From: Bugula neritina
Taxonomy: Eukaryota; Animalia; Bryozoa
Assembly: GCA_964035545.1 (NCBI GenBank)
Contig: OZ037768.1
Span: forward strand, 10,448,741-10,512,740
Direction of reading: 5' to 3'
Length of the DNA: 64,000 nt
The position numbers and the translations under genes are program-made. The notes beneath the pieces were generated by a model. That model did not search any database. It had not been told where the DNA came from and saw nothing but the letters and a program-made list of their open reading frames with translations. Position 1 is the first letter of the stretch. The number at the start of each line of letters is the position of its first letter. Below are positions 1-44,598 of the stretch, piece after piece.

Positions 1-2178
1 GAAGCAGACGGTTGGAGAATTTTTCACAGAGGTAGTTTCACAAGGCCAGTCGGCATTCCTGGATATGCCGGAGGAATACAGAAATAAGGTACTGACGAAC
101 GTCTTCATAGCAGGGTTGAACGAAGCCCATCAGAGGGATATCCTTCTGAAGGGTGAGCTCACCCTGCAGCAAACCTTAGAGGAAGCAAAAAAGCTGGAGG
201 CAGTAGACGGGGCATTCAAGACACAAAAAATAAATTTGATAGAGTCAGAAATAGTTGCTGAAGTGAATAACACCCGGAGCCAAGCAGAACTCATAGCTCC
301 TCTGCAAAAACAAATAGATGGACTGGCTGAGCTAATAAAAGCTCAGTCAGTAAGATCCAAAGAGCAAGCGGAGAGAAATTACAGAAATAATAACTACCAG
401 CCCAACAGATACCGCGGTAGAGGACGCAGTAGTAACCGGGGTAACAGTAGAGGTGGCTATAGCCAAACACAGCGCTACCATAACCAAAGCGCCCACAACC
501 AGCATCAGGCCCCTTTTAACCAACACGGAGGACCATATAACCACCAATCACTACACAGATACAATAATGATCGAACAGGTCAAAACTACGGCAATGGGCG
601 TGGGCAAAACTCTTGGCCCTGCAAGTCTTGCGGGAACCAGCACTATGGGAGTGTCACAAATTCTGAGTGTACATATACTGGGTTTTTCCTAATGATTATA
701 TACGAATGTTCATAAATATTCTAGACTGATCAAAGAGATGGGTCATTGTTCATTGTTATTGTTTTCATTAGTCATGTTAACTACTGCCCAGCAATGTAAA
801 CAAGGTGTTGCGCAATAATTGCGAAATAACCATGGAAATTCCAATGTTTTGTTTTGTTTTGATTTTCTATAAATAGTATTGGCATGTGGGGAATGTTTTC
901 TACTAGAATCTTCTGTACTGGAATGCTTGAGAATATTCTAGAGCTTTTTGTTTACTATAAATACTGAGGCAGTTGTGTTTACAGTTCAGTTCATTCTCGG
1001 AGTTCATTTTTATACATTCATCTGTGCATATCTTACTAGAGAAATAAAGTCTACTTATATCCACAACTCTATTACTCACAACTGGATTAGCAAGCTGTAT
1101 GCTACTTGTCTATACACTTCTGACTACCAGACTTTTCGAACTCGTCACACTGCTACCAACAGTTTTGTGACAGGGAGCAAATGCTCTAATGTGAATGTCG
1201 TCAGCGACCTCGGTCCTGACCAGTTTGCATTCCAGTTCCTAAATCAAGATCCAGGCCAGGAACATGTTGATGCCGTAGAACTGACTCCCAAAGCAAAAAG
1301 ACCGAAGGCCAAAAGTAGAAGAGGTGGCAAGAAATTCTCAGTCATAAATGCAGTACAACTGGCCATGTTATGCTTGCTAAGCTGCTTCATTGGCTGTGGA
1401 GCGACCCCGGTAGAAGCAAAAAACCCCATGGTATGCGGCTCTCACCATACTGACCAACCCCACTTGTTCCGACTGAGCACTAACTACACCTGCCCCGGAC
1501 ATGACAAGACTGACCCTAAACGACAACCCCAGCAGACTAAAATCATGGTGTACAAACCTAACACGATAGAGTGGGAATCGCTAGCATATCAATGCAAGAA
1601 GTTTAAATCGGTAGTCACCACGTTGGTGTCTTTCTTCTCCGATGTGAAGGTCCGTGATGCTCACATAGAGAACCGGCCTATCATGCAGAGAGAGTGCACC
1701 GACATGGTTGCCTCTAAACACTGTGACGCGGGTGAGCTTAAGGGTGGAAATGGTGTCTTCACTACGCGCAACAAGGTCGAAGCAGAGTACAAGCATTGCT
1801 GCAAGAAGCGATTCTTCTCAAAGTATCAGTGCAGCATAGTTAGAGCGACCGTGTACAAAAGGCACGAGAATAAGGAATTTGAGTCCACTGCAGGTGATGT
1901 CCGTCATTGCAAATATGACGATGGAAGCTGCAGATTGGACGACGGTTCCATTCTCATATGGGAACCACGGAAGTAGACCTACTGCAAGCACACGGAGTGC
2001 TACACCAAGGAAGGCACCTTATTTGACAACTACTTTGTCAGTAGTGACCATTCAATGGCCTTGACGTTTGCCCGATATGGAATCAACTCGACGAAGAACT
2101 GCCATGGCAAGTACACATCGATGTCTGACCAAGAGCTGATGTTAAGGTTCATGACGCCGCTCCACAACATTACTATTC
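1..2178 (+). mobile_element. Truncated copy 1 of env-bearing Gypsy LTR retrotransposon (gag C-terminal half plus env N-terminal half), interrupted by a solo LTR
   Basis: Highly similar to 4022-5694. ORFs 65..715 and 948..1976 match the 4086..5915 protein. Premature TAG at 1974-1976 where copy 2 has CAG. Similarity stops near 2178. Confidence 0.92.
652..1172 (+). mobile_element. Solo LTR (521 bp) of an unrelated LTR retrotransposon
   Basis: Ends TGTCACAAA...TTTGTGACA (9-bp inverted repeat). 5-bp TSD GGGAG at 647-651 and 1173-1177. The empty site is visible in copy 2 (tatGGGAGcaaatg near 4688). TATAAATA at 956, TCAGTT at 986, AATAAA at 1043. Confidence 0.93.
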
Positions 2179-2562: not shown

Positions 2563-3193
2563 TGTTGTAGTGGAATTATGGACTTTAGACTTATTCAATT
2601 CTCATTCTACATTCTCATTTCCTTACGCCCAGCTACACCCCACATTAATATTAACTTTCCATTGTTATACAGATTAGAGACAATTAATGTCATCACAATA
2701 GCCAAGCTGTCTCCTACTGTCTGTAACATGTACTAATTTCGTTACAATTATAATTACATTTTCGCTTTGAAGTCAGTTGCTATACGTCAAACACCCTGGT
2801 CCTGCAGCTTCGTGGCTTTATCCTTATATGGAGATGCAGCCACCCTTGTAAAGGCAGTAACCTATCCTGAGATAGCTGACGTGGACCAACCGGCAGGAAG
2901 CCTAAGTATTACAGCCACTCTTGTAATACTGCAGCCTATCCTGAAGCAGCTGACGTGGAGCTAACCGGCAAGAAGCATCTTGCTACACCCAACAGCTATC
3001 TGAAGTCACTTCTCTGTAAGACCCAGCTTCAGGTAGACGCACTCAGAACGAGAGGAGTTATCTACAATCTACAAGGTAATTACCATAAAGTATATGCATA
3101 TAATACTGTTATAGTAAATCACTAAGGCTTAGCCATATTAGTAATAGCTGTACAGTAAGTTATAGCGGGATACCACAAGTTCCCGTTATAACA
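2563..3193 (+). repeat. 5' LTR of the env-bearing Gypsy element
   Basis: Direct repeat of 21185-22234, starts TG and ends CA, followed by a PBS. It contains an internal duplication (cctatcctga...ctgacgtgga...aaccggca twice) that is single in the 3' LTR. Confidence 0.9.
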
Positions 3194-3195
3194 TT

Positions 3196-3206
3196 TGGTG
3201 GAGGTA
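3196..3206 (+). promoter_or_regulatory. Primer binding site, probably tRNA-Ala
   Basis: TGGTGGAGGTA lies 2 nt after the LTR end and is complementary to the ...UACCUCCACCA 3' end typical of tRNA-Ala. Confidence 0.75.
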
Positions 3207-3687: not shown

Positions 3688-4800
3688 ATACCCACCGCCA
3701 ATCCATTCCAAACGCAGATAATAGCAAGCGTGGCACCCAACTTGGATAGCCTGCCATCTTTTTCCGGCGACTCTACTGAGTCCTGGGAGAATTTTATAGA
3801 GAGGTGGGAAGTCCTGGTGGCCCCCAGCGATATGATAACGAACAACTAGCCCTCGCCATACCTGCCAAGCTCACTGGCTCAGCTTGGCAGACATATCGAA
3901 AGGTAGTGAAACAGGCGCCCGGCTGTGCCAGCAACTACACTGCACTTAAACCCAAACTGGCTACAATGTTTCAAAGTAGCAACCCACTGCTAGGGAAGAG
4001 CCTCTAGAAACTGTCACAGGGGAAGAAGACTGTTAGAGAATTCTTCACAGAAGTAGTTTCACAAGGCCAATCGGCATTCCTGGATATGCCGGAGGAATAC
4101 AGAGATAAGGTACTGACGAACGTCTTCATAGCAGGGTTGAACGAAGCCCATCAGAGGGATATCCTTCTGAAGGGTGAACTCACCCTGCAGCAGACCTTAG
4201 AGGAAGCAAAAAAGCTGGAGGCAGTAGACGGGGCACTCAAGACTCAAAAAATAAATTTCATAGAGTCAGAAATAGTCGCTGAAGTAAATTACACCTGGAG
4301 CCAAGCAGAACTCATAGCTCCTCTGCAAAAACAAATAGACGGTCTGGCTGAACTAATAAAAGCTCAGTCAATAATATCTAAGGAGCAAGCGGAGAAAAGT
4401 TACAGAAGCAATAACTACCAGCCCAACCGATACCGTGGTAGAGGACGCGGTGGTAACCGAGGCAACAGAAAAGGTGGCTATAACCAACCACAGCGCTACT
4501 ATAACCAAGGCGCCCACAACCAACATCAGGCCCCTTTTAACCAACATCAGGCCCCTTTTAACCAACAGAGAGGATCATACAACCACCAATCACTACACAG
4601 ACACAATAATGATCGCACAGGTCAGAACTACGGCAATGGGCGTAGACAAAATCCTTGGCCCTGCAAATCTTGCGTGATCCGGCATTATGGGAGCAAATGC
4701 TCTAATGTAAATGTCGTCAGCGACCTCGGTCCTGACGAGTTTGCATTCCAGTTCTTAAATCAAGATCCAGGCCAAGAACACGTCGATGCCGTAGAACTGA
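3688..4800 (+). pseudogene. gag: Gypsy Gag (capsid plus CCHC knuckle), decayed
   Basis: LPSFSGDSTESWENFIERW capsid start, LSQGKKTVREF motif, RG/N/Q-rich region, CX2CX3HX4C knuckle at 4662-4700. Lesions: 1-nt loss in the C-run near 3821 and TAG at 4005-4007. The start is inferred as ATG mutated to ATA at 3688. Confidence 0.85.
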
Positions 4801-4850
4801 CTCCCAAAGCAAGAAGACCGAAGGCCAAAAGTAGAAGAGGTGGCAAGAAA

Positions 4851-6864
4851 TTCTCAGTCATAAATGCAGTACAACTGGCCATGTTATGCTTGCTAAGCTG
4901 CTTCATTGGCTGTGGAGCGACCCCGGTAGAAGCAAAAAGCCCCATGGTGTACGGCTCACACCATACTGACCAACCCCACTTGTTCCGACTGAACACTAAC
5001 TACACCTGCCCCGGACATGACAAGACTGACCCCACGCGACAGCCCCAACAGACAAAAATCATGGTATACAAACCTAACACGATAGAGTGGGAGTCACCAG
5101 CTTACCAATGCAAGAAGTTCAAATCAGTAGTCACCACGTTAGTGTCTCTCTTCACCGACGTGAAAGTCCGGAATGCTCACATAGAGAACCGGCCTATCAC
5201 GCGGGGAGAGTGCATCGACATGGTTGCCTCTAAACACTGTGACACGGGCGAGCTTAAGAGCAGAAATGGTGTCTTCACTACGCGCAACAAGGTCGAAGCA
5301 GAGTACAAGCACTGCTGCAAGAAACGATTCTTCTCGAAGAATCAGTGCAGCATAGTTAAAGCGACCGTGTACAAAAGGCATGAGGATAAGGAATTCGAGT
5401 CCACTGCAGGTGATGTCCGTCATTGCAATTATGACGAAGGAAGCTGCAGATTGGACGACGGTTGCATTCTCATATGGGAACCACGGAAGCAGATCCACTG
5501 CAAGCATACAGAGTGGGACATCGAGGAAGGCACCTTCTTCGACAACCACTTCGTCAGTAGTGACCATTCAATGGCCTTGACGTTTGCCCAATATGGAATC
5601 AACTCGACGAAGGACTGCCATGGCAAGAACATGTTGATGTCAGACCAAAGGCTGATGTTAAGGTTCATGACGCCACTCCACAATGTTACCATTCGCAACA
5701 ACGTCACAGCCACATATCAAATTGTAGGCTTGTATGCGTCTACAATAAACGCAGTAGCACAAGCTCTGGCGTTAGAACAAATCACCACTGCACAAAAACT
5801 ATTCTGGACTTCATACTACTATTCGTGTCACAACACTGCCCAAACCATTAACCTCATCACTCTCTTACTTGAAAGACATCTCACAACAGCAGCAAGACAC
5901 GTTGCAATTGAGTAACGTGGTCGCGAAAGCCGGCCTAGGCTACTTAGAGGTGTACCCCTGCACTGAGTTGGAAAGAACTTCTTACCAACTACTGGAAATG
6001 AAACACAACAACTGCACCAACTACTTGCCGATACAAATATCTATAGCTAGTCTCGAATCCATTGGATATCTGGACCCTATAAAAAACATAATACACCCTG
6101 ACTCATACAACGTAGACTGCACCCACAAAGAGAAAGTTCCTGGGAAATTGGACGGTATTATTTACTTATATTCATGGAACGAATCTCTAAAACTGGCCCC
6201 AAACACTACAATTCTATCCCTGCCAAACATCAACTTAGGAGCTACTCCCTTGGAATTACACGAGAACATCTTCAGTTGTGCACATAGACTGAATCGGACT
6301 GATTTTAGTCATCACCACTCCTTAAATGCTATCCTTTCAACACTCAACCGCCAAGCACAGGTGTTGAAAACCGTTGGAGTTGTTAGCTCCTCACACTATA
6401 GACTAGACAAAAATAGAATAGAGACTCAAGAAGGCATACTGGGTAATTCATATTTCTCCTTCTTGTTCGGAGGTCATGTAGCCTCAGTATATGAATTGTG
6501 GACCATGCTAGCAAATCTCATTGTGACGATTGCTTCAGTTGTCTTCGTTTCAAAGAAATTATACTATCACCTGTGCATCAGATACATCTGCAAAAGGCGT
6601 GGCGGAATCGTAGTAGATGCTGTGGACATCATAGAACAAAGTAGAACACACCAACCAACAGCAGAAGAGACTAGGACAGCCACGGAATTGCATTCTTTAA
6701 TAAACCCCACTCATTCCCAAGTAGAAAGTACAACCCCCATTTCTGCTATTAACTCAAACACCCCACCAGCAAGGTTATACCCTGCACTTGAGGATATGAC
6801 CGAAACAGATGACATCGCTTGGCCTTCTTGGACCAAGCAAGCCAGGCAAAAGTCTTCACAATGA
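4851..6864 (+). pseudogene. env: Envelope glycoprotein, class III fusogen-like (gB/chuvirus/rhabdovirus G-like), in frame with gag
   Basis: Signal peptide FSVINAVQLAMLCLLSCFIGCGATPVEA. Cys-rich ectodomain (AYQCKK, ITRGECIDMV, CRLDDGCILIW, TTAARH, LEVYPC, CTNYLPI, GYLDPIKNII..DC) with many NxS/T sites. TM anchor near 6480-6550 and a cytoplasmic tail. One frameshift near 5902. Confidence 0.85.
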
Positions 6865-7184
6865 CTAGCCACGCCATTGCCGAAAACCGCTCCCCAAGTA
6901 TTGGGAATTCTGGATAGTCGCACCTGTCGAACAACAACAATAAGGGCAGAGGTAAACGGCAAGAGGTGTACCGCGTTAACAGATGCTGGCGCATCCATAA
7001 GTATTGTGAACTGCAATATCGCTGCCAACTTAGGGTTGGCACTACAACCACAAAAGATTAAGGCAAGGGGTGTTACCAACAGCTCCTTAGACATTCTCGG
7101 GAAATCGGACGTAGTGATTACAATAGGCAAAGACACAAGAGTAGAACATTCACTCTTCGTGGCCAATGCAATTACTCACGACGT
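6865..7184 (+). pseudogene. pol: Pol N-terminus: retropepsin-type aspartic protease, truncated
   Basis: AEVNGKRCTALTDAGASISIV active-site motif (D-T/S-G variant). Cut off just before the expected ILG motif. Same frame as env after TGA. Confidence 0.88.
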
Positions 7185-7349
7185 TTACTGAAGTGAACTC
7201 GATATTTTTGAAGTAAAACTTGAAACTTCAAGTTAATACCTTTAAATACCTTTTTAATACCTTTAAATCCACCCCGTTTTCCTTTCTGCTTTGGCCCGCG
7301 GAGCTCTGGGGGCTTCCAGGGATCGTGGGGTTTCTGCCGCTTCTTAGGT

Positions 7350-8156
7350 CCGTGGGCAGCTCGAGCGGCGGTGTCCTCTTGTGCCGCATCTCCAGCAACG
7401 GGTAGCTGGTCTGGGAGTCTCTACTCCTGGTCTCTTGTACTCCATGGGATTGCTGTATGTTATGGTCGCCACCAACTGTCCCAACATAGTCAAAAAGCGG
7501 TCGACCTCTGTCTCCAAAGAAGGGCTAGCAGTAGCGGCAGCTACTCAGACCGGATGGTCTGGTTCTCTAGTGGTTCGCGGGATAGTCTCTATCGCTCTAT
7601 AGAGTTGCTCGGCCCCCAGATATGCCTCGCTTTCCTGGATTGCAGCCTCTTTTGTGGTCACTCCTCTCGCTTGTAACTGGTGGTGGAGGCCCAAATTGTT
7701 GAGGGATTGTACAAAAGCCTCGAACGTATAGCGCCGTCTGTGTGTTTCTGGCAGGTCGCTATACGCGATCCGTGCCAGTCTCTTCACCAGAGTAGCGTGG
7801 TCCGGAAGTGGTGTACATGTTTTGCGGAGCAGTCCCTGTAAACGGGCCTTGGCGTCTGCGACAGGTATGCCAAAACGGGCCCGTAGCGCAGCAATGATCC
7901 CGTCTACGCTAGGTCTCAGCCCGTACGGCTTGGCTTGTTCCGTCAGTGCCATCCGTAGTTTTATCAGGGCTACTCTCGGCGGCCATTTTGTAATGGCTGC
8001 AACTTCATGGAATTCCCGAATAAATTGTTCAACATCTTCAAGGCCCGTGAAGGCGGGAGCCTCTAATGTATATTTATATGCCTCCTCTTCGGCCTCGGGA
8101 GAGTTTACGATAATGTCTCGCTCACCTTCTTCAGTTGAAGCTGTACTTTCGGCCAT
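7350..8156 (-). pseudogene. gag: Gypsy Gag of the second element
   Basis: APAFTGLEDVEQFIREF...ALRARFG capsid motifs. CWRCGTRGHRRSSC (CX2CX4HX4C) lies near 7355-7400, beyond a premature stop. Confidence 0.85.
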
Positions 8157-8198
8157 GATGCTCTAATGTTTTTCCATCGTCTCCAAACAGTAGCTAGG

Positions 8199-8484: not shown

Positions 8485-10128
8485 ATAGCACCGCGCACCA
8501 TAGCGGCAAGCAAACAAGCTAAGCACTACTATTAGCAATAGCGTGCCTAGCCCCAAAATACTTATTATAAGGCCCCCATTTTGGTCCTCCTGAGCTGAGA
8601 ACAGCCCAGCAAAGTCGAATTCAGTAACGTTAGACCCTGTAGCATAGAGTGGCATATAAACTAGGAATGCTTACTCAAAGAGGCAATTTGATTGATATGA
8701 CTATGATGACGACCCTATACTGCTACTGCTTTAAACTAGACAATAGGTCTACTTACTAACCCCGCGTAACAGGCAGATCGGTAGTTGTTTCTAGGATATT
8801 CGGTGCTGTGCTGTACGGTGTAGAGGCTTCCCTGAGGCACTCTAGCACTCTCCCCCACCAGTAGTTACAATGTAACAGACAGGTCCAAAGGGCAAGGGTC
8901 CATTCAAGTCAATATAAGCAATAGCCTAGTGAATACATATATCAACCCCCCTCCCCCCCCTCAGTTAGATACTAACATATAACAGTCTGCTGATACCAAC
9001 AAATCTACCCCAATGCTTACTAACCCCTTGAGGAGTAAATAGAATAACGAATGGCAGGAGCCATTCCCTTTTCTTTTTATTGAGTGAGCAGCTTAACAGC
9101 TAGCAGTGGGTACCAGTGGCCCACTAGATCAATTATATATAATCATAACACAAAACACTGAAGCCGAAATACCCACTAGTTGAAGTTTTCTTTTTTTATA
9201 ATTATTATCTACTTACCCACTTATTTCAATATTAACCAGATAAAGATGGATCTATATGGGTGTATAAGTAACTAAAATAACTGTGAGACAAGTTACAACC
9301 AACAACACCCATCTCATTAAGTCTAATGACCATTATTGCCAAGTACAACTTCACTCTTGTTGATTAGAATTTTCTAATGTCAATACTACTCAACCAGACA
9401 TATTGACATAGTATCTATTAGTATTGACACCGCAACTAGTAGCAACACTGCAATTATTGTGGGTGGGTAATTCAGTCAGCAAACAATCCACTCATTAGTT
9501 TTACTTTAAACTTATAGTCGCAATACTGTACTGAAAATTTATCATTTTTTAAAAAAGAATTAAGTTTCAAAGTCAAATGGGAAATTACACTTAGTTTTGG
9601 TTATATCGTTTCAGGACATTTCCCTTCTAGACTAAAACTTTTACACGATTACAATTTTTAATTACTGAAGTAAACTCGATATTTTTGAAGTAAAACTTGA
9701 AACTTTAAGTTAATACCTTTAAATACCTTTGAAGACATAGAACACTTGGAAACACTAAAGGTTATAGAAGTGCGTCATTTGTTTTACAGTGTGGGCTAAA
9801 GGTTGGTAATTGTGTTAACTTTTTTTTACATGAACTCTCTGGTGTCTCTAATGGTTCTTGGTAAGAAGCTTACCATGGTACACTAGTGAGTTTGCATAAT
9901 TGGATGTTAGTTCACTGCGGGCAGAAGACCTAGTAGTTATTGACATATTTTAACGATCTCGTCTGATTTCGTCGTATGCCATTGCTAAGATTGAATGTTG
10001 TTCTTCTTTCTCCAGGATTTTCATGAGGAGATTGAGTCGGTAAGCCCTGCATCTCTGTTTGAGAGGCTGAAGGCCAAGCTGAGAGCATACCTCGGTTACA
10101 CTTTCTCGTCCCTTTTTTCCAGCAATAA
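8485..10128. repeat. Duplicated block, copy A (LINE 3' end plus about 1.2 kb of flank)
   Basis: Near-identical to 13424-15058. A third short piece lies at 7185-7267. Confidence 0.95.
9710..10128 (-). mobile_element. LINE 3' fragment (ORF2 C-terminus and tail)
   Basis: GRESVTEVCSQLGLQPLKQRCR...LPRTIRD and the AAAGGTATTT tail repeat. Same family as 14655-20650. Confidence 0.85.
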
Positions 10129-10413: not shown

Positions 10414-13355
10414 TAGGGGTAAGTGGGGCAGTCTGGACCGTTTTTTAGTTTTTTACATATTTTGAACACGCTATTGGTGATATGCACAATTTAACGAGAA
10501 AATATGTTAGTTTTATATGTTGTGCTGTCTATGAAACACTTAGATAATTAAACTTCTCTATTTTCTCCTCGTCACAACCAATTAAAAATGTCTTCTCAAA
10601 AGGTCCGAACTGCCCCATAGTAGGGGCAGTTTGGACCAAAAGAAACAATTTTGTTTGAACCACACAGGAATTTTTTTTGTTATTTAAATGTAAGTATATT
10701 GTGCACTCTATGTAACATACCAGCATTAAAAACATGATGTGATTGATATTTTACATATAACATGTCCATATATTCACTAAGCAATAAGCAATGTTGTTCG
10801 GATATAATAATGAACGTAATATAATGCTTCCATTAAGTTCTGTTGACTAGAACTATAGTTTGTTAGGAGTGTTGTAGACGGTAGACCTTCCATCTTGCAT
10901 ATACTGCGATAAATCAATGTTGAATGTGAGCTTTTTACACGTGCGCTCAGTACCACCAGAACTTGTTGGGGTAGGTAACAGAAGCACCAGGTCGCAAATA
11001 TCAACTGTAGCAACATCTTCTTGCACTGGTACAATAAACTGCCTGTTCCCTACGCTCTTATAGAATGATATTACAGCTGTATCTTCGTCACGTTGAATAG
11101 AGTGGACAACCCCAGGAAAACGACGAACATTTTTCTTTCCCCTAAGTGCTGCTAACACGTAGCTTCCAACGTTCAGTTTGTCTGCCGTTATAGCTTCCAC
11201 ATCAGCCACCTCGTCCTCACTCGATGGGTCATCAGTATCATCATCAATTGGTATGGCAAAGTCTTCCTCACTACTGCTGCTATCTTCCTCTCTAGCAATC
11301 TTTCTCTTTTTCAATATTGATGGTTTTTTTGTTTTTCTAGCAATCCGTTCCATTTCCTCTTTCTTAAGTTAAATCTTTGTTGGAGTGTTGGTCAGAATAG
11401 TTGTTTTTCTCTTTCTGTTGCATTGTTTGGTTTTTCTGGGTCCAGCTTTAGCAAATGGTCGTACCTGTTCCGGTGTGATAGCACTTGGGTTGTTGGTATC
11501 CGCAGAATCACTAGATGGAGATGTCTGGCCATCAGAAGTAGTAGTTTGCTTGATAGAATTGTCAGAAACAGAGGCTACTACACCATTACATTCGACTTCA
11601 TCATGGTTACTTGGTTGGGGGCGATCAGTAACATATGATGAGAGAAAATCATCATCACCAAAAGCATTGCGATCTATTGGGCAAATACCAGGCTTTCGGA
11701 ATCCGCTTAAGATGTTGCTGGGTGTCATGGCTCTAGGATAAGCTAAGCTTAGCAAAGATGCCATATTGTAAATTGATAATGTTTGGCCAGGGTTACTCAA
11801 ATGCCACGATGTACAAGCTTCGTTAAAATATCGCTTCAACGGGCCATATACTGCAATGTCCAGTGGCTGCAGTTTATGGCTGCAATGTGGTGGGAATGTT
11901 AACATCACCACTCCACTCTCCTTGGCCAAATCTATGGCATCTATGCTTGTGTGGCTATCATGATTGTCCATCAACAGTAAGACAGGCCTATCTTTAGATG
12001 CTCTAGTATGCAGTTTGAAATGACGAAGCCACTCTATAAACAGTTCTCTTGATATCCATCCTGATTGACAAGCAGCACCTATTGAACCTACTGGAGCATC
12101 ATTAAGCATGAACTCTCGATATTTTACTCGAGGAAAGATCAACATTGGGGGAATACTGTTACCACCAGCACTAACAGCGACAACCATTGTGATCAAAACT
12201 CCTCGCTCAGCTGATGTTACATGACCAACTTGTCGGCACTTTCTATCTGCAATGACCTTTGGTGGTTTGTGTACAGTTGTAAGGCCAGTTTCATCCATAT
12301 TGTAGATTTCTGAAGCAGCAAACTTATATCTTTCCATTACCCATTGAAGATTGTCAAAAAACTGGTTAACATTCGCTCTGTTAAAGGCGGTACCTCTACT
12401 GAGGCTGTTAGGCTCTGGTTTTCTTAAACTTAGATCTGTGTGTCGTTTCATAAAGCCACTGATCCAATCTTTACCTGCACATTGTTCATAATCCCATGAT
12501 TTAGGATATGTAGCACCTACTTTTTTAGCATACTCCCATGCAAACTCCCTGGTCTTTTTCTTAGAAAGCCCGTGGTTCTGCTTTGCTGCCAATTTTAAAT
12601 AGTCCTCCAACATCCTCTCTTGCTCAGCGGTAAAGACTGCACGGCTTGAAGTAGATTTGCTATATGACATGTTAGATCCCTTAACCTTAGCCTCATCAAC
12701 ATAGCGTCTGAGTGTAGTACGTGAGACATTAGAATTTCTTGCTACTTGACGCAGAGATTCTCCAGCTAAAACCAATTCTACAGCTTCCTTCATTGCCATC
12801 TCAGAGACTTTTACCCCCTGTTTCTTTTTCTTGTAACTCCTAACCATGATGACGATGTTTAATCTAAAACAGTAAACAGAAAACTCTTAAATTGTAAAGC
12901 TCTACTCCATATCCCTTAGTGGTAATCATGCATTCTGTGGGCGGGGCACTTTGGACAGCGGTCCAAAGTGCCCCTATGTGTATGGGCCAAACTGCCCCAC
13001 CTGTCAAAATTTATAATTTTCTTATATATCTCAAAACTTGATTTAGCAAGATATGTTAGCAATGCATGATGATTAACTATGGTCATAGATGTTTGCATGC
13101 ACCAGATATGAATAAATTGTACAACACACATGACTTCAAAAATCTCCATTGAAAATAGTTTATCAAATTTTATTTATAAATATCTGCTTACCTCTTCTTC
13201 TAGAATAGCAGCATGTGGACAAAAACAATATGGCAGACTTTTTACATCCTCTTCTTGGTTTTCCTAGAAGAAAGACAACTCAAAACAAATTAGATTTAGC
13301 TGCAGATTGGGTGGTCCAAACTGCCCCTGTGTCCAAACTGCCCCACTTACCCCTA
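10414..13355 (-). mobile_element. Complete pogo/Fot1-like (IS630-Tc1-mariner) DNA transposon
   Basis: TIRs TAGGGGTAAGTGGGGCAGT(C/T)TGGAC at both ends, flanking TA duplication, and internal copies of GGGGCAGTTTGGAC near 10602-10638, 12942-12998 and 13313. Confidence 0.95.
10853..12847 (-). pseudogene. pogo-family DD35D transposase (about 664 codons, one in-frame stop)
   Basis: N-terminal psq and CENP-B-type HTH domains, NMDETG, LLMDNHDSH and LQPLD with 35 residues between the last two Asp. ORFs 11369..12847 and 10853..11353 share a frame, separated by TAA at 11369-11371. Confidence 0.93.
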
Positions 13356-13399: not shown

Positions 13400-13823
13400 A
13401 TTTGGGGTGGTTCTATACTCTATATAGCGCCGCGCACCATAGCGGCAAGCAAACAAGCTAAGCACTACTATTAGCAATTGCGTGCCTATTCCCAAAATAC
13501 TTATTATAAGAACCCCATCTTGGTCCTCCTGAGCTGAAAACAGCCCAGCAGAATCGAATTCAGTAACGTTCGACCCTGTAGCATAGAGTGGCATATAAAC
13601 TAGTAATGCTTACTCAAGGAGGCAATTTGATTGATATGACTATGATGACGACCCTATACTGCTACTGCTTTGAACTAGACGATAAGTCCAATTACTAACC
13701 CCACGTGACGGGCAGATCAGTGGTAGTTTCCTCCAATTCCACGGGTGTACTGTAAAGCGTGGAGGCACTGCTAAAGCATTCTAAAACCCTCCCTCGCCAG
13801 CAATTGCAGTGCAATGGGCAGAT
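13400..13823 (-). other. Cryptic spliced gene or pseudogene for a small Cys-rich single-pass membrane protein (second copy at 8485-8884)
   Basis: Exon 13700-13823 ICPLHCNCWRGRVLEC...TTTDLPVTW between CAG and GTTAGT. A phase-compatible TM exon starts at 13575. Differences between the copies are strongly biased to synonymous sites. No start codon found. Confidence 0.5.
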
Positions 13824-15058
13824 CTGAAGGGCAAGGATCCATTCAAGTCATTATAAGCGATAGCCTAGTAAATGCATATATCAACCCCCCTCCCTAGTTA
13901 GATACTAACATATAACAGTCTGCTGATACCAACAAATCTACCCCAATGCTTACTAACCCCTTGAGGAGTAAATAGAATAACGAATGGCAGGAACCATTCC
14001 CTTTTCTTTTTATTGAGTGAGCAGCTTAACAGCTAACAGTGGGTACCAGTGACCCACTAGATCAATTATATATAATCATAACACAAAACACTGTAGCCGA
14101 AATACCCACTAGTTGAAGTTTTCTTTTTTTATAATTATTATTTATTTACCCACTTATTTCAATATTAACCATATAAAGATGGGTCTATATGGGTGTATAA
14201 GTAACTAAAATAACTGCGAGACAAGTTACAAGCTATACTTACATCAACCAACAACACCCATCATTAAGTCTAATGACTATTATTACCAAGTACAACTTCA
14301 CTCTTGTTGATTAGAATTTTCTAATGTCAATACTACTCAACCAGACATATTGACATAGTATCTATTAGTATTGACACCGCAACTAGTAGCAACACTGCAA
14401 TTATTGTGGGTGGGTAATTCAGTCAGCAAACAATCCACTCATTGGTTTTACTTTAAACTTATAGTTACAATACTGTACTGATAATTTATCATTTTTAAAA
14501 AAAAATTAAATCTCAAAGTCAAATGGGAAATTACACTTAGTTTTGGTTATATCGTTTCAGGACATTTCCCTTCTAGACTAAAACTTTTACGCGATTACAA
14601 TTTTCAATTACTGAAGTAAACTCGATTTTTTTGAAGTAAAACTTGAAACTTAAAGTTAATACCTTTAAATACCTTTGAAGACATAGAACACTTGGAAACA
14701 CTAAAGGTTATAGAAGTGCCTTATTTGTTTTACAGTGTGGACTGAAGGTTGGTAATTGTGTTGACTTTTTTTTTGTATGAACTCTCTGGTGTCTCTAATG
14801 GTTCTTGGTACACTTGTGAATTTGCATAGATGGATGTTAGTTCACCGCGGGCAGAAGACCTAGTGGTTATTGACATATTTTAGCGATCTCAACTGATTTA
14901 GTCTTATGCCATTGCTAAGATTGAATGTTGTTCTTCTTTCTCCAGGATTTTCATGAGGAGATTGAGTCGGTGAGCCCTGCATCTCTGTTTGAGAGGCTGA
15001 AGGCCAAGCTGAGAGCATACCTCGGTGACACTTTCTCATCCCTTTATTCTAGCAATAA
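13424..15058. repeat. Duplicated block, copy B
   Basis: Near-identical to 8485-10128. Confidence 0.95.
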
Positions 15059-16632
15059 ACCTCACTGCCCTGTGCTGTAACATTTCCAGAGACTCGATGT
15101 CTTTAGCTAATGTTGGATCCCATACGGTATCTGCATACTCGAGGATGGGGCGGCCCAGACTAGTGTAGACCAGTAACGTACCTTCTCTGTGGCCTTATAT
15201 AGAACATGTTAAATTGCTCCCAGAATTTTCAAGTGTAATATGCTGATCAAATTTAAAGTTTGACTGCATTACAACCCTCAATTATGTTGAGTCTACCCAA
15301 TCTATCTTTGCTTCACCTTGCTTGTACAGAGGTTTGTTATTTTGATTGCCAAACGCTATGATTTTGCATTTACCTTCATTGAAAGGCATTTACCAATCAA
15401 CTGACCATTTGTGTATGGCATTGATGTTTTCCTGGAATGTTGCAGCGTCTTCTTTTGTGTCAACAGCCTGATACAGTAGCGTATCATCAGCATAAAGGCT
15501 TACACTGCAGTTTAATTTTAGTGGGAGATCATTAATATATATTAGAAATAGTGTTACACCTAGGACTGAACCTTGTGGAATCCCTGAGGTTACTTCTAAT
15601 TCTGAGGAAAATTTTCTGTCAATAACTACTTTTTGTTTTCTATGTGTCAAAAAATTTTGAATCCAGTTTACCTGTTGTGGATGTATTTCTGGTATTAGTC
15701 TTAATTTTTGCATTAGTAGACGATGAGGCACTTTGTCAAAAGCCTTTTTGAAATCAAGTACCATAGCATATGTGGTTTTTATTGTTTCCTTAGTTTTTGC
15801 TAGTTCATGGTATATGGCACAGAGTTGTGTTTCACAAAACCTGCCTCTTCTGAATCCGTGTTGTCTGTTGTAGAGAAAATCATGTATGGTTCAAATAATG
15901 AAGTACAATGTGTTCCATCATTTTGCATGGGATACTAGTTAGTGATATGGGGCGATAATTACTTGCTACCACCTTATCTCCACCTTTGTGCACTGAGGTG
16001 ACATACGCAAGCTTCCACTGGGCGGGTAACTTTTCTGAGTCTATTGAGGCTTGAAATACCTGTTTTAGGCACACAGCTGACATCATGACATCCAAAAGTA
16101 AATCTGGTTTGCGAATTCCATCAGGTCCTGGAGATTTTCCATTTGATAAACTGTTTATCAATTTAATGAGACCTTCAGTAGTTATCTCTGTAGGTGCTGC
16201 CGCAGTTTTTCTAGTTGAAGAGTGTTTGAAAATTGCTGATCTTTACAGAATTGATTCTGAAAATATTTGTTGAGGATGTTTGCACACTCTCGCTTCTTCA
16301 GTGATTTTTCTTTGTCAACTATTCAATTTTATACTGAAATCGCTATTTGACCTAATATTTTTAGGTGCTTGTAAAAAGGTTTAGAGTTACCTTTTTGAAG
16401 TGGTTTGCACAACTTTTCTATTAAATGTTCTCTTTTTTCTGTTGACATCCAGTTTTACTAGTTCTTCTTTCTGCATGGTATTTATGTATAAAATATGTGT
16501 CGCCAATCTCTTTATACTTTTTCCAGGTTCTTCTACTTTTTTGTATTAGTTTTTTCGTTTTCCTATTCATCCATTCTGGCCAGCTGTAGTTTTTTGGATA
16601 TAGCAACTTTGTGGGGATATTGTTGTATTTTT

Positions 16633-21184: not shown

Positions 21185-22234
21185 TGTTGTGGAATTATGG
21201 ACTTTGGATTTATTCAATTCTCATTCCACATTCTCCTCTCCAGACCCCCAGCTCTACCCCACATAAATTAACTTTCTATTGGTATGCAGACTAGAGATAA
21301 TTAATGTCATAACAATAGCCAAGCTGTCTCCCACTGTCTGTAACATTTACTAATTTCGTTATAATTGCAATTACACTTTTGCTTTGAAGTCAGCTCTGAC
21401 TCGTCAAACATCCTGATCCCTGCAGTTACGTGGCCCTACCCTTATATGGAGATGCAGCCACCCTTGTAAATGCAGCAACTTATCCTGAGCAAGCTGACAT
21501 GGATCTAACCGGCAAGAAGTCTCTTGCTACACCCAACAGCTATCTGAAGTCACTTCTCTGTGAGACCCCGCTTCAGGTAGACGTAAGCCAGAACGAGAGG
21601 AGTTATCTACAATCTACAAGGTAATTACCAGGGTTGGGGTAATTGTAATCTGTAATTGTTTGTAATTAATTACATTTTTTCAAGTAATTGAATGTAATTT
21701 GTAATTGACGTATAAAAATGTAATTGTAATTAATTACATTGCTAATGTAATTGAATTTTACAATAACTTTATAATTACATAACAATTACTTCAAATTTTT
21801 AAATCTTAGAAAGTTCATATTTTACCTGCCTTGCCTACTGTTCAATAAAAAGTTCAGAATAATTTAATGTCGTATTTATCACCCTATTCGTTACTGTTGA
21901 GAACAAAGAAGGTTTTCAGTTGTCAAAATTGCCCCTGGTAGTTGGACCCCAGAAGTGAGATTATATAACTTTTATTTGTCTCTTGTGAGAACAAAAGTAC
22001 TTGTAATTAATCACATTACCATGTAATTGTAATTAATTACATTTGTTTCAACTGTAATTGTAATTCGCAAATTATCATGTAATTGTAATTAATTACAGTC
22101 ATATGTAATTGACCCCAACCCTGGTAATTACCATAAATTATATGCATATAATACTGTTATAGTAAATCACTAAGGCATAGCCATATTAGTAACAGCTAAG
22201 TTGTAGCAAGATACCACAAGATCCTGTTACAACA
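21185..22234 (+). repeat. 3' LTR of the env-bearing Gypsy element (contains a MITE)
   Basis: Direct repeat of 2563-3193 once 21629-22123 and one TSD copy are removed. Confidence 0.9.
21629..22123. mobile_element. Non-autonomous hAT element (MITE)
   Basis: 12-bp TIR CAGGGTTGGGGT and 8-bp TSD GTAATTAC (21621-21628, 22124-22131). The empty site is in the 5' LTR near 3076. Subterminal GTAATT repeats. Confidence 0.93.
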
Positions 22235-24989: not shown

Positions 24990-25223
24990 TCGTATTCAGT
25001 ATAACTATAAGTATAAGTATTCTATTGCTAATAGTAATACTAATAGTAATAGTAATAGTAAATGTAATACTTATACTAATACTAATAGTAATAGTAATAC
25101 TGTATTATTATAAATATATCAACTAGTACATTTTCTATTACTATTACTATTAGTACAACATTAATTATGTTACGCTAAGTATTAGTATGACTCTAACTCT
25201 AAGTATTACTGTATTACTACTAG

Positions 25224-25270
<47 letters not shown>

Positions 25271-26030
25271 GTAGTACTACTACTACTACTAATACTACTA
25301 CTACTACTACTAGTCTTAGGTTTATTATTAATATTATATTCAGTTTCACTTATTTATAATAATTATTTATTTATAAGCGTAATAAATGAATGTTACAATG
25401 ATTAACTATAACTATAACCTGTCTCAGTAACTGAGAGTGACTATCAGTATCACTATCACTATGAGTATGAAGATAAGTATCAGTATGTCACTATGAGTAT
25501 GATTATGACTATGAGTATCAGTATGAGTATAATTATAATTTAAACTAATACTAATAGTAATAGTAATACATTATGAGTATACATTTAATTTTATACTATA
25601 ACTATAAGTATAACATTAAATATACTGAGTACTAACACTCTAAACGAAATTCTAAGTCTAGGCATTACTATTACTAACTATTAGTATTAGTATTACTATT
25701 ACTATTAGCATAAGTAATACTAATAGTATAACTATAAGTTTTACTTTTAGTTATTACTATAAGTAGTATAAGATTAGTATAACTATAAGTATAAGTATAA
25801 CTCCCTATAACTAATACTATAAGTATAACTATAAAAGTAAGAGTAAAACTGAAGGTAGTAGGAAGCCTAAGAGTAAGAGTAACTCAAACTTAAACTGTAA
25901 GTATTACTATTACTAATACTATTACTATTAGAATTACTATTAGTATTACTATTACTATTAGTATTAATAATAGTTATACTAAAAGTAATACTAATAGTTC
26001 TATTAGTACTGATTATAAATATAAGTATAA
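24990..26030. repeat. AT-rich simple-repeat tract including an (ACT)n microsatellite near 25215-25312
   Basis: Runs of TAATAG, TACTAT, ATAACT, ATGAGT and ACT. Confidence 0.9.
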
Positions 26031-26041
26031 CCATCGTAATT

Positions 26042-42405: not shown

Positions 42406-43128
42406 GACAGCTACTCTTTAGCTGCTAACAAATATTATTTGAAACCTAACTTTCTGAAGTCTCGGTGCTTTGTAACAATCATATTTAATGATGTAGGTTT
42501 ATTTGTCTACAAAAATTACATTACTAAAAAAACAAAATATAAAACATGTACAACTTGGTTTACATAAAAAGAAATTTATAAAAAAATAAAATGGTAAAAG
42601 CTTGCAAATTTTCCCACTAATACTAAATCTTATGTGTAGATACAAGAACTCAAATTGTTAAAGGAATTATTATAGAAACCAGCTTTCACGTGAAGGTCAG
42701 TTACAGTGACAAATCCTAGCATTTTTATTTTTTCCTCTTTTCACCCAGTATTCACCAGGAACAGCTATATCATTGATAATTGTATGAATAATTGTTGCTG
42801 AAAACTATTGGTAAACAAACACAATGACAATATCAAGCTCCTTAGCCTTGGTGAATCTGTTGATGTTGGTATGTATATAGAAAATTAAAATACGATACAA
42901 TTTATACTCACATTGCTACGTGTCATTAGATTACTATTATTATTATAAATATTATTTATTAACTTAAGTTTACAATAAAAGTAAGTGCCAAGAAGTAAGA
43001 AATCTTAACACAAAACTGAAAACAGTTGCGAAGGTCAAGGCAAAAATGCAAAATTAGTATTACTATTAGTATCAGTATGAGCATGACTACTACTGTCTAC
43101 TGAGTAATACCCACTAATACTAATAGTA

Positions 43129-43819
43129 GGTACATCAAGTATCCTTTAGCCCCGCCTACTTTCGCAAAATCGAGTGGCATCGATAGCCCGAGCAAAATCT
43201 GGAAAGCGTACAGTGCAGAAAACCTGTTTAGACCTCTTTTTGATTTGCTAATAACTTTTAGTATAGTTCATGCAGAGAAAATTTGAAGATATCATTGTGT
43301 AGCAGAGCCTTTTATTAAACTGATTTTATGATCACGAACCCCTTCAAATCCTCTGCTCCTTGTAGTAAGTAGTGTTGAAGTATAGTAAAAATCCATGTTT
43401 TTCAATCGATAATCTAAGTTATAATTTGTGACAGATATGCAAAATGAATATATTTTAATACCATCTCTAAAGGTTTTCTATCAATTGAAGTATTAATATG
43501 ATGATATAATGTTTTAGCTATTTAGTTATAATGATTTAAGTCGAAGGCTATGCTCGAGATTTGTAGATTTTTGAAATAGCCATTACGCTATTGTTGCTAA
43601 ACGCATGAAAATAAGTGGGTTTGCTAAAGCATTCATGGCGTGAAGATTTAATTGCTCGGGTATCTGGTTGAACGTCATAAATTTACAAGTTAATATCTGC
43701 ACTTGTAGTTGATCTTGCCTGTTGAGAGTGCATTGAAGCTCACTCAAATTTTCTTGTCTAGCGATCTAACCTAATATTAAACTGTAAAGCGTGACTTGAA
43801 AATTATCATTTGATGTACC
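43129..43819. mobile_element. MITE with TA flanks
   Basis: TA-GGTACATCAA...TTGATGTACC-TA terminal inverted repeat. Confidence 0.65.
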
Positions 43820-44240
43820 TACTAATAGTAATATTGTTACTATTAGTATTACTATACAGACTCAATAGTATTATACTATTACTATTACTATTAGAGTATT
43901 AGTATTACTATTAGTATAAATGTATTACTAATAGTAATACTAATAGTAATACTAATGCTAATAGTAGCTAAATACGAAGAGTACCTAAGTCTAATAAGTA
44001 TAACTTAAAAATAATATTAATAAGTAATAGTATTACTATTACTGTATTAGACTAATAGTAATACTAATACTAATAGTATTAGTAAAGTATTACTCATTTA
44101 ATGAGTCATTTTGATTTAGTTTTAGTTATTTACAATTACTCATTACTGTAAGTGTATTAGTATTACTATTACTATTACTATTAGTAATAGTATTACTATT
44201 AGTATTAGTATAAGTATAACTATTAGTATTACATAGAATA
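43820..44240. repeat. AT-rich simple repeat (TACTAT/TAATAG)
   Basis: Degenerate hexamer repeats like those at 24990-26030. Confidence 0.8.
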
Positions 44241-44598
44241 TCAATCTCGATATGCAATATTTATGAATATATCTATTTTATTAAAATTAATCTTAAATCA
44301 CTATGATTAAAATGATTTCTTGAGACGTGCACAATAAATATAAGTTTTAGCCCATATTATTATAGCTATATGAATATGAATTCCGATACAACTAATGATA
44401 ACGATATATTAAAATTTTCACGCTTTCTGTCGGAAACTACCAACATTAGGGAACGTCATCCGCAAAGAATTCACACCGCACCAAAGTTTTACTATTTTTC
44501 ACTTTAATATTTAATTTATTTTTGTCATAATTTTTTAATTAGATTAAAATATTTTTAGCATCTTTTAACTTCTTCCATAATATTTTGCAACAAGTCTC

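Follow-up and report, generated by a model that had tools for sequence, protein, structure and literature searches.

The window, by which we mean the whole stretch of 64,000 nucleotides that was analysed, contains on its forward strand a retroelement copy that begins with a 5' LTR-like repeat with TG...CA ends (2566..3193), a second copy of which, at 21185-22234, is 85-89% alike, interrupted and possibly a solo LTR. The repeat is directly followed by a primer-binding-site-like sequence, TGGTGGAGG (3196..3205), presumably a match to tRNA-Ala, and the 9-mer of this site is also found upstream of gag in three of the related loci described below (L007, L009 and L010). Next, a broken gag remnant (3736..4859), delineated by tblastn with the Gag-Env protein of L007, carries a frame change between 3807 and 3831 and a stop at 4005, its 3' part sharing the frame of env (ORF 4008-5915). 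The env gene (4860..6861) encodes a class III fusogen resembling herpesvirus gB, in which an internal hydrophobic signal segment comes first; the gene product is 84-93% identical to P0001, a close and intact Env, and the gene has a frame change near 5902. An Env transmembrane segment is specified at 6496..6552, and the part downstream of it, which includes the YPxL late-domain-like motif YPAL (6778..6789), is predicted to be cytoplasmic from the sequence and from the two hydrophobic segments present in each of four scanned relatives. The env stop with its conserved context (6859..6867) is followed by the start of pol (6865..7184), encoding an aspartic protease in the env frame, without Met and with its D-A-G at 6982-6990. 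Folding places here the 5' arm (6871..6882) and, within protease codons, the 3' arm (6957..6969) of a predicted long-loop stem, which is family-specific and of putative function.

This copy is decayed. The protease is truncated at 7184, where an unrelated repeat (7185..7253, with further copies at 9662-9730 and 14608-14676) starts in place of the remaining pol, and contigs of runs X1, X2, X4 and X5 diverge into other sequence at 7183-7185. No reverse transcriptase, RNase H or integrase of the element family was detected in the window by tblastn, the Pol sequences of the relatives matching the protease only; no 3' LTR was found for the window copy, which is cut, and Pfam returned no match on its gag or env pieces. 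The terminal repeats of the relatives L007 and L009 measure 55 nt only. A second partial copy of the element occupies window positions 1-2178, being 89-92% alike; it contains approximately 520 additional bases (652-1172) and lacks the junction.

At 6859-6868 the sequence reads CAA TGA CTA G, composed of CAA (6859-6861), TGA (6862-6864) and CTAG (6865-6868). According to the ORF list, the TGA terminates a 362-codon frame-1 ORF encoding the Env C-terminus, and it is followed in the env frame by 108 Met-free codons with the D-A-G protease site at codon 40; this post-stop frame matches Pfam Asp_protease_2 with an E value of 4.8e-06. The junction as described in the initial annotation, i.e. a CAA TGA CTA G beyond which the protease continues in frame without an ATG, can thus be read directly from the window. 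Since the 9-mer CAA-TGA-CTA by itself is not rare in 64 kb (five found, 2.2 expected), its weight derives from its conservation in relatives. The context CAATGAC[A/T]A flanks five of the 2456 TGAs in the window and five of the 1728 TGAs across four representative related loci, and four of the latter five are the junctions.

Relatives were retrieved by a metagenome scan, which returned 12 loci (10 real and two false), and by a genome scan, which yielded one further false match; a scan of viral contigs found no relative. The false matches (L011-L013; 58 residues, unrelated context) were removed before counting. The 10 real loci make up four families, 98-99.8% alike within a family, with L002/L004 and L007 being 73% alike, and the four families with DNA seem to be drawn from one series of assemblies. 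CAATGAC[A/T]A is present at the junction of all 10 loci; in nine of these the env frame ends at the junction TGA and pol lies in the same frame, while in L010 env is frame-broken with the junction kept. Identities between families range from 38-63% for Env and 29-82% for the protease to 53-84% for Pol. In the four representatives the pol ORF is intact (1289-1312 codons), and the junction TGA is the sole stop in 2029-2486 codons, alongside 25-36 TGG codons.

With the family of the window included, the context CAA-TGA-C[A/T]A occurs in five of the five families with DNA, and the invariant block at the junction in a five-way alignment is CAATGAC-A; the terminal stops of pol are TAA or TAG, without a common context. 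The spacer from the stop to the catalytic Asp measures 38-43 codons and, because its length varies and is always in frame, indels within it must have preserved the frame. In L004, L007 and L009 the catalytic Asp precedes the first Met, which in L001 stands six codons ahead of this Asp, at codon 32. Upstream of the stop, gag and env constitute one ORF of about 1140-1400 codons (658-4194 in L007 and 1468-5001 in L009), and a hydrophobic signal segment lies inside it. All five families have D-A-G as the protease active site, which is mostly D-T-G or D-S-G in the continuous relatives considered below.

Among the matches listed for close copies of the window element (40 of 45 rows; contigs from four runs), no substitution was seen at 6856-6867, and 6868 G>A was present in one contig of each of the four runs; of the 27 records listed, six span the stop with at least 31 letters to either side. 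None of the runs listed as carrying the element is recorded as RNA. A 12-base frame-keeping deletion at 6844-6857, just ahead of the stop, is also seen in close copies, and the end of P0001 is shorter. On these comparative grounds, the TGA at the junction is not decay but a stop inherited with the fused gag-env ORF: the initial annotation had envisaged that other copies might carry a sense codon at this position, the TGA then being a product of decay, and TGA was found in 10 of 10 loci.

In order to extend the comparison to proteins, 157 sequences were screened, 18 of which continue beyond the membrane segment of Env and terminate with no match to Pol. The final residue is Gln in 12 of these 18 proteins, as compared to 4.8% Gln in their tails; among the 12 Gln-ending proteins, one repeats P0008, and P0058 represents a cut continuous form. 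A CAA codon at -1 is not universal, because P0004, P0007, P0010 and P0012, which lie within the clade, have Ser, Tyr, His and Asn as their stable final residues; these proteins may rely on a different context or reach Pol by a different route. In 26 more distant proteins env runs into the protease without a stop. A quick tree was constructed from 32 rows chosen for Env coverage, other proteins being excluded. In this tree, which is midpoint-rooted with long branches and in which five of the 32 rows fill under half of the columns, the 18 stop-side rows cluster together (SH-aLRT 98), adjacent to a cluster of four continuous rows (98), and the other continuous rows plus one ending row (P0027) fall outside both groups, a topology which suggests a single gain of the stop.

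The element fits the Ty3/gypsy GAG-ENV-POL, HSV/gB-type errantiviruses that were described in Bryozoa, Nematoda and Platyhelminthes by Chary and Hayashi (PMC13524379), with which the elements analysed here share the gene order, the gB-like Env and the Ty3/gypsy-order Pol. Among the matches listed, Env domain I-II of the bryozoan Cpal_errantivirus_4, 5 and 6 (supplementary file 2 of PMC13524379) resemble by eye the Env family of the elements analysed here, a likeness from which a bryozoan host may be guessed. The main text of that article mentions neither readthrough, frameshift, splicing nor polyprotein, nor late domains or ESCRT, and is silent on how Pol arises and on gag-env being one ORF. 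The gag-env-pol order was established by tblastn in the window, and in L007 and L009 by Retrotrans_gag and Monjiviricetes_fusion matches in ORF1 (those of L007 being below curated cut-offs) with Pol in ORF2. The order protease, reverse transcriptase, RNase H and integrase, which is that of Ty3/gypsy, was found in four of four scanned relatives, the window keeping the protease only.

The initial annotation had proposed UGA-CUAG as the signal at the env stop, this being a context in which mammalian AQP4 and LDHB undergo readthrough. The same holds for mammalian OPRL1 and MDH1 (PMC13517186), and UGA CUAG is present in the window copy, but its G is not kept across the family: the fourth base is G in the window family alone, is A in some of the close copies, and differs in the relatives, where positions +1 to +4 read CAAT (L001), CTAT (L004 and L007) and CAAC (L009). 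Expressed as RNA, CAA UCA of L001 and CAA CCA of L009 fit the type I hexamer CAR-YYA, and the window, L004 and L007 carry CUA, the type II motif; both are known readthrough motifs, and adenines at -1 and -2, which all families possess, are a known readthrough feature (PMC3159437). CUAG is hence not the conserved signal, since two relative families have CAR-YYA and two have CUA, and from the alignment it is the form that C[A/U]A takes in one family. When compared to established systems, CAR-YYA in L001 and L009 recalls the tobamovirus type I signal UAG-CAR-YYA, although the stop is here always UGA, whereas UGA-CUA in the window, L004 and L007 recalls the alphavirus and tobravirus type II signal (UGA-CUA/CGG with a 3' stem), but without a stem in common. 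Both types thus occur here at one homologous site.

The full model of the initial annotation combined readthrough with a long-loop stem acting as a needed, alphavirus-like stimulator. The pairing it described is present in both the MFE and the centroid structure of the window, where the arms 6871-6882 and 6957-6969 form 11 bp including one G-U (z -2.52; 4 of 200 shuffles as good; pair probabilities 0.77-1.0). A needed stem is favoured by the frequent association of 3' stems with type II motifs (PMC3159437) and by the duplex formed by +4..+25 with +46..+140, which, ranked against positions of the same size, is within the top 0.3% in L001 and in the window, the rank of the latter being biased, as the window had served to shape the test. 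The corresponding ranks are top 6% in L004, 20% in L007 and 19% in L009. The register varies by family: the 11-bp stem of L001 pairs with different codons than that of the window, and the stem of L004 is absent from the MFE structure of L007. Folding z values of +1.5, +1.2 and -0.5 for L004, L007 and L009 are non-significant (three of the four relatives), RNAalifold across families revealed no common long-range helix, and L004 and L007 have identical codons from -1 to +3 with no raised synonymous conservation beyond.

Close copies, among the matches listed, vary at four of the 12 bases of the 5' arm. The change 6873 G>A improves a pair by converting G-U to A-U, and one change falls in the bulge, while changes at 6877, 6878 and 6969 break pairs in the register described for the window; no two-sided, i.e. 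compensating, change was seen among the matches listed. The role of the stem is doubtful because a conserved register, covariation and synonymous-site conservation are all lacking, and we regard a needed stem as unlikely, albeit the best placed of the alternatives. Of the features through which the initial annotation proposed to verify its model, neither the conservation of CUAG nor the covariation of the stem was borne out. The 3' stem may help in some families and is not the common signal.

With respect to the Env protein, a structural model of P0001 (mean pLDDT 52) gave Foldseek PDB matches that, among those listed, are all herpesvirus gB, the best being HSV gB with an E value of 4e-18 but a TM score of 0.25. 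In four of four scanned relatives Gag-Env contains two hydrophobic segments, at the start of Env and before the tail, and a cytosolic location is predicted for the Env tail and for whatever is joined to it. YPxL and P(S/T)AP are retroviral late-domain motifs that normally reside in Gag. Across 19 Env tails (the window, L001, L004, L007, L009 and 14 proteins), YPxL is present in 15 (0.41 expected from shuffles), P(S/T)AP in nine (0.32 expected) and PPxY in four (1.07 expected). At least one budding-type motif was found in 18 of the 19 tails, as opposed to one match in 7927 ectodomain residues, these sequences being related and hence not independent. YPxL also occurs in three of the four nearest continuous relatives, and env may have been inserted into gag ahead of the late-domain region of the latter.

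Considering that one conserved stop separates the fused gag-env from an in-frame pol, the Pol enzymes are likely to be produced by occasional readthrough. We propose, with a probability of roughly 0.85, that Pol is made by readthrough of the inherited env stop, guided by CAA-UGA-C[A/U]A, to generate a Gag-Env-Pol polyprotein. The core of the earlier interpretation, namely that Pol arises by bypass of the env stop rather than of a gag stop or by a frameshift, is strongly supported by the comparison (10 of 10 loci), while its CUAG context and the conservation of its long-loop stem did not hold. The majority of ribosomes would stop at the TGA to yield Gag-Env, and a small share would read through into pol. 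The internal signal segment would place the gB-like ectodomain in the lumen, with cleavage from Gag, and through the second membrane segment the tail, bearing its motif-predicted YPxL and P(S/T)AP late domains, would come back to the cytosol. Pol would then be attached to a minor share of the Env tails, enter budding particles with them and be freed by its own protease. The local nine bases would serve as the main signal, with the 3' stem as a possible helper in some families only. This proposal is to be read against DNA from four families, two of them 73% alike, against the Met that precedes the catalytic Asp in L001, and against the Candida element Tca2.

Tca2 is one of several retroelements in which a single in-frame stop sets the product ratio, together with Moloney MuLV (gag-UAG-pol) and soybean SIRE1 (pol-stop-env), its own arrangement being gag-UGA-pol; its junction contains a minor promoter and, in a yeast reporter, gave no readthrough (PMC2194720). 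Tca2 is the precedent for an alternative in which Pol is started separately, through an internal promoter, reinitiation or a non-AUG codon, or is reached by a Tca2-like non-canonical bypass, and the Met at codon 32 of L001 would agree with such a start. Initiation at an AUG, however, would cost part or all of the protease in five of five families, including that of the window, and a separate start leaves both the CAA at -1 and the kept frame unexplained, for which reasons we deem it improbable. A marginally weaker candidate is an RNA spliced from gag to pol, env and the stop being removed; Copia, setting its gag:pol ratio by splicing, provides a precedent (PMC2194720), and AG dinucleotides do follow the stop in every family. 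Yet the alignment has no invariant AG column and no common acceptor phase before the protease, the kept env-pol frame and the codon-phased readthrough motif would go unexplained and, as a weak argument from contigs only, no joint was seen near the junction in the contigs compared; splicing is therefore considered improbable as well. That the TGA results from decay in a continuous ORF or from chance, or that it encodes Trp or Sec, is very improbable despite the breaks elsewhere in the window copy and the existence of continuous env-pol relatives, seeing that intact relatives at approximately 40% Env identity have the identical TGA, that one TGA versus 25-36 TGG per element leads to rejection of a changed genetic code, and that the four nearest continuous proteins are not artefacts of TGA read as Trp because Trp is absent from the 45 residues that precede their protease.

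Readthrough of the env stop would differ in its arrangement from the systems compared here. In MuLV the stop after Gag is UAG, accompanied by a purine spacer and a compact pseudoknot, whereas here a UGA follows the tail of a membrane glycoprotein and precedes Pol; in SIRE1 env lies after the stop, whereas here Pol does and env lies before it. The nematode NERV element is said by Sacco and colleagues (2022) to be one continuous gag-env-pro-pol ORF without a stop. In NERV env likewise precedes pol (cited in PMC13524379), but in the elements analysed here a conserved stop gates Pol. MuLV readthrough amounts to approximately 5%, and retroelements need approximately 20:1 Gag to Pol (PMC2194720). 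Neither the element family nor retroelement readthrough is new, while no published account was found of the env-stop-pol geometry, of the two interchangeable motifs or of the late-domain-like Env tail. No published description of env-stop readthrough into pol was found in a search that had most subscription papers outside its reach, and PMC8310308 and PMC5408684 yielded nothing bearing on it.

Taken as a joint statement, to which we assign about even odds, this lineage of invertebrate errantiviruses would possess a Gag-Env polyprotein with the topology of a structural polyprotein of RNA viruses, with ESCRT late domains on the Env tail and Pol packaged as a readthrough extension of Env instead of Gag; the stop would have been gained once from a continuous gag-env-pol ancestor, restoring a low enzyme-to-structural ratio, and the type I and type II motifs would since have been interchanged at the site. 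Readthrough of the env stop offers an answer to the production of Pol in GAG-ENV-POL errantiviruses, a matter not addressed in the main text of PMC13524379 and, if true, would represent a retroelement Pol that reaches the particle on an Env tail, a route unlike that of a Gag-Pol fusion. One homologous site with either classic motif, together with stop-free sister lineages, would furthermore provide a natural series for the origin of recoding signals, and for annotation it carries the warning that in-frame stops of this sort are not decay.

Elsewhere in the window, a DDE_1/Tc5-type transposase ORF (11369-12886, minus strand) lies between 1.6-kb direct repeats (8485-10128 and 13424-15058) that are 91% alike, and a 205-codon ORF (7545-8162, minus strand) is gag-like by eye with no fitting Pfam match. 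A reverse-transcriptase fragment is present at 15390-15890 on the minus strand (RVT_1, E 8e-23), and long low-complexity TAC/TAT/AGT arrays occur in both orientations at 25000-26040 and 43050-44270.
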